Virus record (IMG/VR): IMGVR_UViG_2675903609_000009
Strand: one strand, 5' to 3'
DNA length: 15,832 nt
DNA from: a virus
Lineage: Duplodnaviria; Heunggongvirae; Uroviricota; Caudoviricetes
The notes beneath the pieces are model-generated. The model did not search any database, was not told the origin of the DNA, and worked only from the letters and a program-made list of their open reading frames with translations. The position numbers and the translations under genes were made by a program. Shown here piece after piece: positions 13,228-13,536 of this stretch (positions are counted from its first letter, which is position 1; each line of letters begins with the position of its first letter).

Positions 13228-13356
13228 AACGGCTCCTAGTTTACGTTGTTGGTTAGAAGCCCCGTTACTGCTCCTACAGTGCGGGGCTTTGCTTTTTGTG
13301 TTGATTGTGTGTAATGTGTCACTACACATAAATACATTACCTGAGGTGTAATTAAC

Positions 13357-13536
13357 GTGTCAACACACAAAAACGAAAGGCGTGGTAATCCTCCGTTCCA
13401 GTTCCGTTTAGATCCTGACTTACGGGAAAAGATGGAAAAGGCACAACAACAGGACGGCGATGATTCTCTTGCTGCCTGGATAAAGCGAATAATCCGCAAA
13501 GAATTACAGCAACGCGGCATAGAACCCAAAGGATAA
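13357..13536 (+). CDS. Arc/MetJ-type ribbon-helix-helix transcriptional regulator (59 aa, GTG start); not in the supplied ORF track
   Basis: Translation ...NPPFQFRLDPDLREKMEKAQQQDGDDSLAAWIKRIIRKELQQRG has the beta-strand / helix / helix layout of Arc-like repressors; GAGG upstream of GTG 13357; divergent from the minus-strand gene cluster. Confidence 0.55.
   Translation: MSTHKNERRGNPPFQFRLDPDLREKMEKAQQQDGDDSLAAWIKRIIRKELQQRGIEPKG

Follow-up and report, generated by a model that had tools for sequence, protein, structure and literature searches.

An antisense-nested ribbon-helix-helix gene in the P4-style control region of a capsid-forming satellite island: a candidate repressor

The DNA discussed here is the caudoviricete virus record IMGVR_UViG_2675903609_000009, a stretch of 15,832 nucleotides that is referred to below as the window. 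Our subject is a small plus-strand gene near its right end, predicted to encode a ribbon-helix-helix (RHH) protein, and the control region in which this gene lies. A first-pass annotation, made by a model from the letters alone, had described a plus-strand open reading frame (ORF) of 59 amino acids with a GTG start at 13357, missing from its ORF list and facing away from a cluster of minus-strand genes. The ORF is present exactly as described, and it is indeed divergent from the minus-strand cluster, which runs from an icd-like gene to a primase gene. The divergent gap covers 13228..13356 (129 bp), the icd-like gene starting at 13227. The genes at the locus, with their Shine-Dalgarno (SD) sequences, are as follows.

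13357..13536, plus strand: RHH gene, 59 amino acids, GTG start, identified from the ORF, its homologues, codon-position rates and profiles
13343..13346, plus strand: SD sequence GAGG of the RHH gene, 10 nt ahead of the GTG, read from the sequence
13027..13227, minus strand: Icd-like/Kil-like gene, 66 amino acids, NF033153 match with E 6e-18, first gene of the leftward operon
13233-13237, minus strand: SD sequence AGGAG of the icd-like gene
13239..14039, minus strand: eta-like frame, open over 267 codons in phase with alpA, with the RHH gene antisense within it
14040-14228, minus strand: alpA, homologue of P4 vis, PF05930 match with E 5e-18, upstream of the eta-like frame on the same strand

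The 59-amino-acid ORF is almost certainly a real RHH gene. With a threshold of E <= 1e-3, 117 homologues were found in the databases, mostly of 55-60 amino acids; they come from numerous genera of Enterobacterales and from Orbales, Pasteurellales and Aeromonadales as well. Their annotations read 'hypothetical', 'phage protein' or 'predicted HicB family', and 80 genomic loci were fetched for comparison. Xenorhabdus has ATG in place of GTG at the same start codon. An SD sequence is present in every protein type distinguished below, as AGGAG, AGGTG or GGGT at the same place in the types other than type A, to which the window belongs. A tblastn search of 50,697 phage records with the 59-amino-acid protein gave four weak matches only, P4 not being among them.

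A stop-free minus-strand frame, absent from the first-pass account, spans the 129-bp gap and the whole RHH ORF, and the coding strand has to be decided between the two. Third-position periodicity cannot separate them, because both frames share their wobble positions. They were separated instead by the rates at positions 1 and 2 (plus position 2 is minus position 1, and plus position 1 is minus position 2), by amino-acid identity and by BLOSUM scores. Fitch substitution counts on neighbour-joining trees of four independent alignment groups gave 156/86/422, 9/2/40, 93/49/223 and 38/18/149 changes at plus codon positions 1, 2 and 3. Plus position 2 is thus the least variable class in all four groups, with roughly half the changes of plus position 1, and the plus frame is therefore the constrained one. 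Over the same 156 nt of 34 type-A loci, nucleotide identity is 74.0%. Amino-acid identity in the plus frame is 85.7%, with conservative replacements (mean BLOSUM62 +0.34), versus 69.5% in the minus frame, where replacements are radical, of the Cys/Trp type (BLOSUM62 -0.80).

The protein had been read at first pass as showing an Arc-like RHH pattern, a lack of homology to Arc/MetJ-type proteins being named as what would speak against it. That lack was not encountered: the profile search that had been proposed for the 59-amino-acid protein returned RHH-type families, and the pattern is borne out by modest direct matches with phrog_228, an 'Arc-like repressor' family (E 2e-6), NF041551 (E 5e-4) and VapB (E 0.012), as well as by relatives in the RHH clan. 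The type B and D proteins defined below score 19-19.5 bits on NF041551. With the family profile, 47 proteins were found among 1.84 billion representatives, and distant relatives match HicB (best 4.5e-7), RHH_1, NikA-like, RHH_10, TacA1, CopG_antitoxin, Omega and RelB. A sequence search of the PDB with the same profile gave nothing relevant. We can predict a beta-strand at about residues 13-19 (PFQFRLD), helix A at 20-33, a turn DGDDS and helix B at 38-53; the alternating pattern PFQFRLD / QIALRVE / QYQMRL of the different types is compatible with a strand. The AlphaFold2 (AF2) model, made with a 32-sequence alignment, places helices at 20-33 and 38-53 with a confidence (pLDDT) of 94. Among the matches listed by Foldseek against the PDB, about 30 of 37 are RHH proteins (NikR, CopA_SO, Arc, CopG, PutA, AmrZ, ParD, MatP), and NikR superposes with a root-mean-square deviation of 0.7 A over 37 residues.

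Some results do not favour this assignment. Pfam gives nothing for the 59-amino-acid protein itself, and its score of 20.0 bits on NF041551 (YlcI_YnfO_N) lies below the cutoff of 30. The N-terminal segment of the AF2 monomer has no strand (pLDDT 50-67), which is expected because such a strand pairs only in the dimer. All Foldseek matches have E-values >1, owing to the small size of the protein. We accept that the 59-amino-acid protein belongs to the RHH (Arc/MetJ/CopG) superfamily, its strand and its binding to DNA being predictions.

The minus-strand frame deserves attention in its own right. Its first ATG is at 13982, for a product of 248 amino acids, and its stop codon, TAG at 13236-13238, lies inside the SD region of the icd-like gene. 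At ten of ten E. coli/Shigella loci one minus frame is open from the alpA stop codon, or a few codons later, to the start or end of the icd-like gene, while the other two minus frames hold 13-33 stops, whichever RHH allele is present. In many genera the frame runs in frame into the Icd-like domain. Within the RHH gene it is stop-free at 61 of the 80 loci, versus about 27 expected from synonymous-codon shuffles, and the control genes in the window have no such depletion of antisense stops. The depletion is seen at the wobble base before CAN codons, where T would give an antisense TGA: T is found at 18 of 405 such sites (4%) versus 23% elsewhere (Fisher p 2e-23, uncorrected for ancestry), and A, C and G all occur there. 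The frame is open at 49 of 51 loci with an alpA/icd/primase context versus 12 of 29 without it (p 6e-8).

Such data could mean that the plus ORF is a non-coding shadow and that the real gene is the minus-strand eta-like or 'Icd-like' ORF, as the RefSeq pipeline (PGAP) implies; PGAP labels the minus frame variously as a hypothetical protein or as a pseudogene, either 'Icd-like' or 'BRO-N'. The first-pass annotation had itself named translation of the opposite-strand ORF as the alternative. Openness from alpA to icd, continuation into the Icd-like domain and avoidance of antisense stops are all in its favour. However, substitutions track the plus-frame codon positions in all four groups, and amino-acid identity in the minus frame falls below nucleotide identity. 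Homology to the RHH clan is confined to the plus frame, and the RHH gene is intact at 17 loci where the minus frame is broken. The 248-amino-acid product has no match in scans of Pfam or other families (NCBIfam, PHROG). We find this alternative scarcely credible: selection on protein acts in the plus frame, and what stands of it is that the minus frame is also kept open. Since its residues are not conserved and its stops are avoided, selection seems to keep the frame translatable rather than to keep its product. It matches the nested eta/kil ORF of P4 in our comparison, and, as with P4 eta, its openness apparently serves a read-through from alpA that is coupled to translation.

That this gene was missing from the list of ORFs is no isolated case, as annotation often misses the RHH gene and PGAP gives only the antisense call in two close relatives. 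In E. coli O157:H7 strain 2-6-2 (L085, 1327-1500) and in L001 (3444-3617), a 57-amino-acid RHH allele of type C is left unannotated by PGAP, which in these two RefSeq genomes calls just the antisense 'Icd-like' pseudogene.

The gap between the divergent genes can be read as two promoters with repeated operators, which agrees with the bidirectional switch layout proposed at first pass. Its candidate elements are these.

13358..13363, minus strand: TTGACA, -35 box of the predicted promoter P_L, inside RHH codons 1-3
13334..13339, minus strand: TAATGT, -10 box of P_L after an 18-nt spacer, in the right arm of the inverted repeat
13289..13294, plus strand: TTGCTT, candidate -35 box of P_R, in the tail of the upstream terminator
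13312..13317, plus strand: TAATGT, candidate -10 box of P_R, in the left arm of the inverted repeat
13312..13332: distal operator candidate O1 (direct repeat D1), 21-bp repeat unit TAATGTGTCACTACACATAAA with core GTGTCACTACAC at 13316-13327
13353..13373: proximal operator candidate O2, TAACGTGTCAACACACAAAAA with core GTGTCAACACAC at 13357-13368, over the start codon and the minus-strand -35 box

An inverted repeat described as operator-like had been reported in this gap. It is real, with ACATTAC at 13334..13340 as given and GTAATGT at 13311..13317, one base off, and a search of the window with the pattern GTAATGT-N(10-22)-ACATTAC gives a single site, whereas none of 200 shuffles has one. The gap does hold repeated operators, but the GTAATGT/ACATTAC arms read best as -10 boxes. 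Most simply, the inverted repeat would consist of two TAATGT -10 boxes belonging to face-to-face promoters with starts a few bases apart, near 13327 for P_L and near 13324 for P_R. The first codons of the RHH gene, (A/G)TG TCA AC, are kept in all types, and their reverse complement is TTGACA. A perfect minus-strand TTGACA is found at 67 of 73 distinct loci, and a TANNNT hexamer lies 16-18 nt from it at 70 of the 73. A consensus scan lists P_L in relatives of types D, C and B with 11, 10 and 11 of 12 matches, respectively; the window site, TTGACA-18-TAATGT, has 9 of 12 and was not listed. The case for the rightward promoter P_R is less certain than that for P_L: in type-A loci TTGNNN-17-TAATGT keeps a fixed distance with a variable spacer sequence. 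A two-promoter switch under the RHH repressor appears well supported.

We consider two GTGTCA-NN-ACAC palindromes, at 13316-27 and 13357-68 and thus 41 bp apart, as better operator candidates than the GTAATGT/ACATTAC arms. O1 and O2 are the sole matches to GTGTCANNACAC in the 15.8-kb window, even when one mismatch is allowed. O1 is conserved among type-A loci, and other palindromes take its place in types B, C and D. These types are defined by the protein. Its C-terminal half is near-invariant in the alignments (DGDxSLAxWIKRIIRKELQxRGIEPKG) and is joined to at least four types of N-terminus, the variable part being the beta-strand and helix A. RHH proteins recognise bases with their N-terminal strand. 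Each type comes with a palindrome of its own, in two copies spaced by about 41 bp upstream of the gene, the proximal copy lying on the start codon.

Type A (window): N-terminus ERRGNPPFQFRLDPELR; distal palindrome ATGTGTCAYTACACAT, proximal palindrome GTGTCAACACAC
Type B: N-terminus KGNKQIALRVEP; distal palindrome CAAGTGTCATACACTTG, proximal palindrome GGTGTCTGACAC (B2 subgroup; other B loci differ)
Type C: N-terminus EKRSPQYQMRL; distal palindrome ATGGTMATTACCAT, proximal palindrome GGGTAATTACCAT
Type D: N-terminus KAKTDQYQIRL; distal palindrome GTTGTAATTACAAC, proximal palindrome TTGTAATTACAA

The start-proximal 24 nt have a match of at least 9/10 in their own distal region at 44 of 70 loci, versus 14% when the distal regions of another type are taken and 6% after shuffling. 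The exchange of types can be followed in the island of E. coli O157:H7, where the flanks are 100% identical to those of the window and a single block is replaced by a type-C cassette.

13258..13493: exchangeable specificity cassette, containing the hairpin loop, both promoters, the operators and RHH codons 1-46

A further relative carries another allele in place of 13303-13529. Operators and the first two-thirds of the protein are swapped jointly, as one cassette, and the region behaves like an immunity-specificity module. On these grounds it is quite likely that the RHH protein binds O1 and O2 and autoregulates.

Upstream of the RHH promoter, the same gap contains a hairpin and, with it, a candidate RNA.

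13256..13297, plus strand: intrinsic terminator found by terminator scan, hairpin at 13256-13290 followed by a T-run to 13297
13221..13297, plus strand: candidate cis-antisense RNA of about 77 nt, over the start codon and SD sequence of the icd-like gene
13186-13191 and 13209-13214, plus strand: candidate promoter for this RNA, -35 TTGTGT, 17-nt spacer, -10 TATGAT

A hairpin at about 13251..13283 had been counted among the features of the gap. It is real, but it is better placed at 13256..13290 and is not an operator feature. It has 10 outer and 3 inner pairs and is followed by TTTGCTTTTT to 13297. Over 63 distinct loci the 13 pairs are 96.3% paired, 10 of them with compensatory changes, and none of 500 shuffles matches any of these measures. 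The plus-strand reading has 108 G.U cells and the minus-strand reading 3, and in the latter pairing falls to 83.5%. Covariation together with the T-run thus points to a plus-strand intrinsic terminator. A TANNNT hexamer stands 36-40 nt ahead of the hairpin at 59 of 69 loci, and it falls in the first icd-like codons even where the encoded residues are unrelated. The predicted RNA 13221-13297 folds at -30.5 kcal/mol (z -4.2), with CUCCU in the loop of its 5' hairpin, and no Rfam family matches it. The terminator hairpin probably ends this RNA of about 77 nt, antisense to the ribosome-binding site of the icd-like gene. Alternatively, the RNA may belong to the RHH transcript, as its leader or attenuator.

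We propose that this is a P4-style control region with an antisense-nested RHH repressor in the place of the CI RNA, a reading that we are inclined to accept in its mechanism as follows. RHH dimers would bind O1 (13312-32) and O2 (13353-73). P_L would be a leftward sigma-70 promoter with O2 over its -35 box and O1 over its start site, so that binding would silence the replication operon from icd/kil to primase. As O1 and O2 also cover the -10 box and start of P_R and the ribosome-binding site of the repressor, binding would result in autoregulation. A second lock is likely to be the plus-strand RNA of about 77 nt, which would lie antisense over the SD sequence and start codon of the icd-like gene. 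Induction would bypass both locks: AlpA-driven transcripts would enter upstream, run antisense through the repressor gene and be translated through the eta-like frame, which, as has been described for eta of P4, would keep them from terminating early. That the RHH protein represses the icd-to-primase promoter is, on balance, favoured by the placement of the predicted operators; that it is the master repressor of the island in the sense of Stl, as the first-pass annotation had suggested, is doubtful.

Several points have to be set against this proposal. AlpA overexpression alone has been reported to induce phage-inducible chromosomal islands (PICIs) of E. coli (PMC6092414), and for this reason the repressor may be a secondary lock and not the master control. 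The -10 boxes in the window are weak (TAATGT, 3/6), which is why neither promoter was listed by the scan. On sequence alone, the repeat contacted may be either GTGTCA-NN-ACAC or GTAAT/ATTAC. The statistics over loci are uncorrected for shared ancestry. In the literature, no expression, binding or genetic results on the 59-amino-acid protein were found.

The icd-like gene directly under P_L is a homologue of cell-division inhibitors, and a narrower function for the repressor has thus to be considered. The RHH protein could be a local antidote that, in the manner of toxin-antitoxin or addiction systems and together with the antisense RNA, silences a toxic icd/kil-like gene and not replication or excision of the island. 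The RHH fold is typical of antitoxins, and VapB and HicB are among the closest of the weak matches. The antisense RNA over the icd ribosome-binding site would resemble the antisense-RNA arrangement known from c4/icd of phage P1. However, the icd-like gene heads a same-strand cluster that reaches the primase gene, with genes that overlap or abut and no terminators found between them; because the cluster is uninterrupted, repressing P_L should silence the replication genes too. In P4, according to the passages of PMC10111431 on the kil region, translation of this region decides on read-through into the replication genes. No conserved, adjacent and co-transcribed toxin gene, as expected of a type II toxin-antitoxin pair, is found at the RHH gene: most genera have no same-strand toxin gene after it, and in Xenorhabdus it stands alone, directly followed by a convergent alpA. 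We judge the antidote explanation to be improbable.

Another explanation is that the RHH protein autoregulates through the local repeats, which would have no further role, while its main targets are promoters of the helper phage or the host, in interference or superinfection immunity. Small DNA-binding proteins of satellites can target helper genes, e.g. CapR of the Vibrio PLE, as cited in the corresponding passages of PMC10111431. A partner common to the operator types is suggested by the near-invariance of the C-terminal half, and related RHH genes occur in loci without detectable AlpA/Icd/Pri context. On the other hand, in every type the operator copies lie exactly on the -35 box and the start of P_L, a placement that autoregulation alone does not need, and the island holds no further GTGTCANNACAC site. 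The chance that the main targets lie elsewhere seems small to us, and repression of P_L remains the preferred reading.

According to PMC6092414, it is unclear whether Gram-negative PICIs have a global repressor, AlpA being the activator. The gene after alpA has been called a variable region of unknown function (10.1101/2025.02.11.637232), and the zone has been described as Bro-type ORFs with immunity RNAs (PMC10111431). No description of an RHH repressor gene was found in the literature on PICIs and P4-like satellites. The 'putative repressor' of EcCIMP1 is an unrelated PerC/ANR-like protein. Gram-negative islands of this kind were believed to be without a repressor, and we regard the RHH gene as the strongest candidate for one to date.

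A bolder version of the proposal would join all these elements into one claim: the long-missing global repressor of Gram-negative PICIs and capsid-forming PICIs (cf-PICIs), acting in a switch of three layers for which one DNA segment is used on its two strands. In the first layer, the first codons of the repressor would be the -35 box of the promoter that it represses. In the second, the cis-antisense RNA would block the icd/kil ribosome-binding site. The third would be the minus-strand frame, conserved only as an absence of stops and serving as an 'escort': ribosomes behind AlpA-driven transcripts would carry them past both locks and the repressor gene. The invariant C-terminal half could then be a handle by which a protein of the helper phage, or AlpA, inactivates every specificity type. 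Taken jointly, these steps are unlikely to hold in full. The exchangeable cassette of repressor and operators would, for its part, explain the hypervariability of the region as immunity specificity. In Gram-positive PICIs a master repressor is inactivated by helper phages, and the cassette described here is a concrete candidate for the Gram-negative counterpart. It could be studied in the cf-PICI of O157:H7, which is experimentally tractable and carries a type-C allele. The locus is also a clean example from nature of a protein gene lying antisense within a frame that is apparently selected only for its openness, and it reveals a systematic annotation error, pipelines calling the antisense frame a pseudogene and missing the real RHH gene.

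Further observations concern the surroundings of the RHH gene. A hairpin lies just past its stop codon.

13546..13572, plus strand: hairpin from the terminator scan, fold -19.3 kcal/mol, z -3.1

It is a possible weak terminator of the RHH transcript. Farther downstream are two overlapping small plus-strand ORFs, 13594-13770 (58 amino acids, p58) and 13661-13990 (p109). p58 matches phrog_21027 (E 3e-12), and PGAP annotates p58 or p109 depending on the genome. In six E. coli relatives no codon periodicity was seen over 13594-13990 in any frame, and a Pfam scan of p58 and p109 gave nothing meaningful. A toxin-antitoxin pair of the RHH protein and p58 was considered and rejected, p58 having no toxin-family match or codon periodicity and being absent from most genera. 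Tandem RHH paralogues are found in five loci, about 170-290 nt from the main RHH match, with the second copy upstream in L025, L033 and L075 and downstream in L044 and L062. In a Citrobacter/Klebsiella clade (L023-L038), which keeps the RHH gene, hairpin and operators, the antisense frame is interrupted, and within 2.5 kb of the RHH gene nothing matched AlpA, Icd or primase. Between alpA and the RHH gene, a GC hairpin (TGGCGGC-ACGCA-GCCGCCA, 14015-14033, minus strand) starts 7 nt past the alpA stop codon and has no T-run. It may matter because AlpA of Pseudomonas has been reported to act as an antiterminator (PMC9371919).

The remainder of the window completes the picture of the island.

1-1461: 3' part of phoQ
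2553-8960: head-and-packaging module with TerL, TerS, HNH, adaptor, head closure, portal, protease and major head genes (PHROG matches)
10318-12066, minus strand: primase of the D5_N type
14603-15832, minus strand: integrase

Small genes, one of them a DUF4222 gene, lie between the icd-like gene and the primase gene, and no tail genes were found among the genes of the head-and-packaging module. From this gene content (int, alpA and primase with its own capsid and terminase genes) we identify the window as an integrated cf-PICI satellite next to phoQ, and its gene order agrees with the cf-PICI layout described in 10.1101/2022.09.08.507074. A Shigella flexneri chromosome (locus L003) is 100% identical across the compared region. 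The island adjoins the 3' end of phoQ; close E. coli relatives adjoin a truncated tqsA instead. The major head gene (7755-8960, minus strand) is broken into two ORFs that abut in one frame, 8085-8960 (291 amino acids) and 7755-8084 (109 amino acids), both matching phrog_10. With this single in-frame stop in the capsid gene, the island copy may be defective or dependent on read-through. Just downstream of the primase gene, at 10150-10231 on the minus strand, a long imperfect inverted repeat gives a chance match with Rfam mir-135 (E 0.38); it could be part of the replication origin of the island.

Among known systems, the window is closest in layout to P4. The genes come in the same order and on the same strand in both: an AlpA/Vis homologue, a long open frame ending at an Icd-like/Kil gene, small genes and a primase. 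Of the P4-type layout, the window has the alpA gene, a long same-strand frame that abuts an Icd-like/Kil gene, and a primase operon downstream. P4 Eta (8168..8812) and Kil match NF033153 as the window gene does, with E 1e-20 and 2e-21. In both, a promoter (predicted, for the window) is internal to the long frame, which stays open across the control elements. P_L would be the analogue of P4 PLE, the constitutive promoter upstream of kil; its site has 9/12 matches in the window and 10-11/12 in relatives. Work on P4 eta and kil by Forti et al. in 1999 reportedly supported an eta-coupled escape from termination. In the passages on eta in PMC10111431, eta is a long ORF with the immunity elements and a promoter inside it and Kil at its end, its translation lets transcripts from the late promoter escape termination, and the coupling of this translation to vis prevents premature termination. 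Differences exist as well. The window has an opposite-strand RHH gene, paired operator candidates and a predicted plus-strand hairpin RNA, whereas the CI RNA of P4 is on the same strand; no RHH-like ORF was found on the opposite strand of the P4 eta region. No match with Rfam C4 or isrK, the CI/seqA type of RNA, was obtained in the whole window at E <= 1, where only the chance mir-135 match appeared. The long frame of the window ends at a TAG 9 nt before the icd ATG, whereas that of P4 is fused to Kil.

In immI of phage P22, the RHH repressors Arc and Mnt act at the overlapping promoters Pant and Pmnt, in the presence of the sar antisense RNA. The window resembles immI in its RHH repressor of the 50-80-residue class, its predicted operators over overlapping opposed promoters and its candidate antisense RNA within the module, and the top PHROG match of the protein is an 'Arc-like repressor' family. 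Nevertheless, the similarity to Arc itself is marginal (Foldseek E >1). The predicted target operon, unlike that of P22, comprises a division inhibitor and satellite replication genes and not an antirepressor, and the RHH gene of the window is nested antisense in another open frame. The YlcI/YnfO proteins of the DLP12 and Qin prophages (NF041551), of unknown function, share the length class and strand-helix-helix pattern of the window protein. True members of 59 and 101 amino acids occupy the same plus-strand slot between icd-like and alpA genes in other E. coli islands and score 59.7 and 63.1 bits on NF041551. The window protein, with 20 bits versus a cutoff of 30 and a signature of its own, is a separate sequence family.

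Finally, the Stl/Rpr repressors of Gram-positive PICIs (SaPIs) are larger helix-turn-helix proteins with a fold unlike RHH. In the window, int and alpA are not on the strand of the repressor, in contrast to the Stl/Rpr arrangement. Gram-negative PICIs have moreover been reported to be induced through AlpA (PMC6092414). The likeness lies in the position of the repressor gene, opposite to the excision and replication operon and near int, and in the proposed function, in which the repressor would silence the island until a helper phage acts (PMC6092414).

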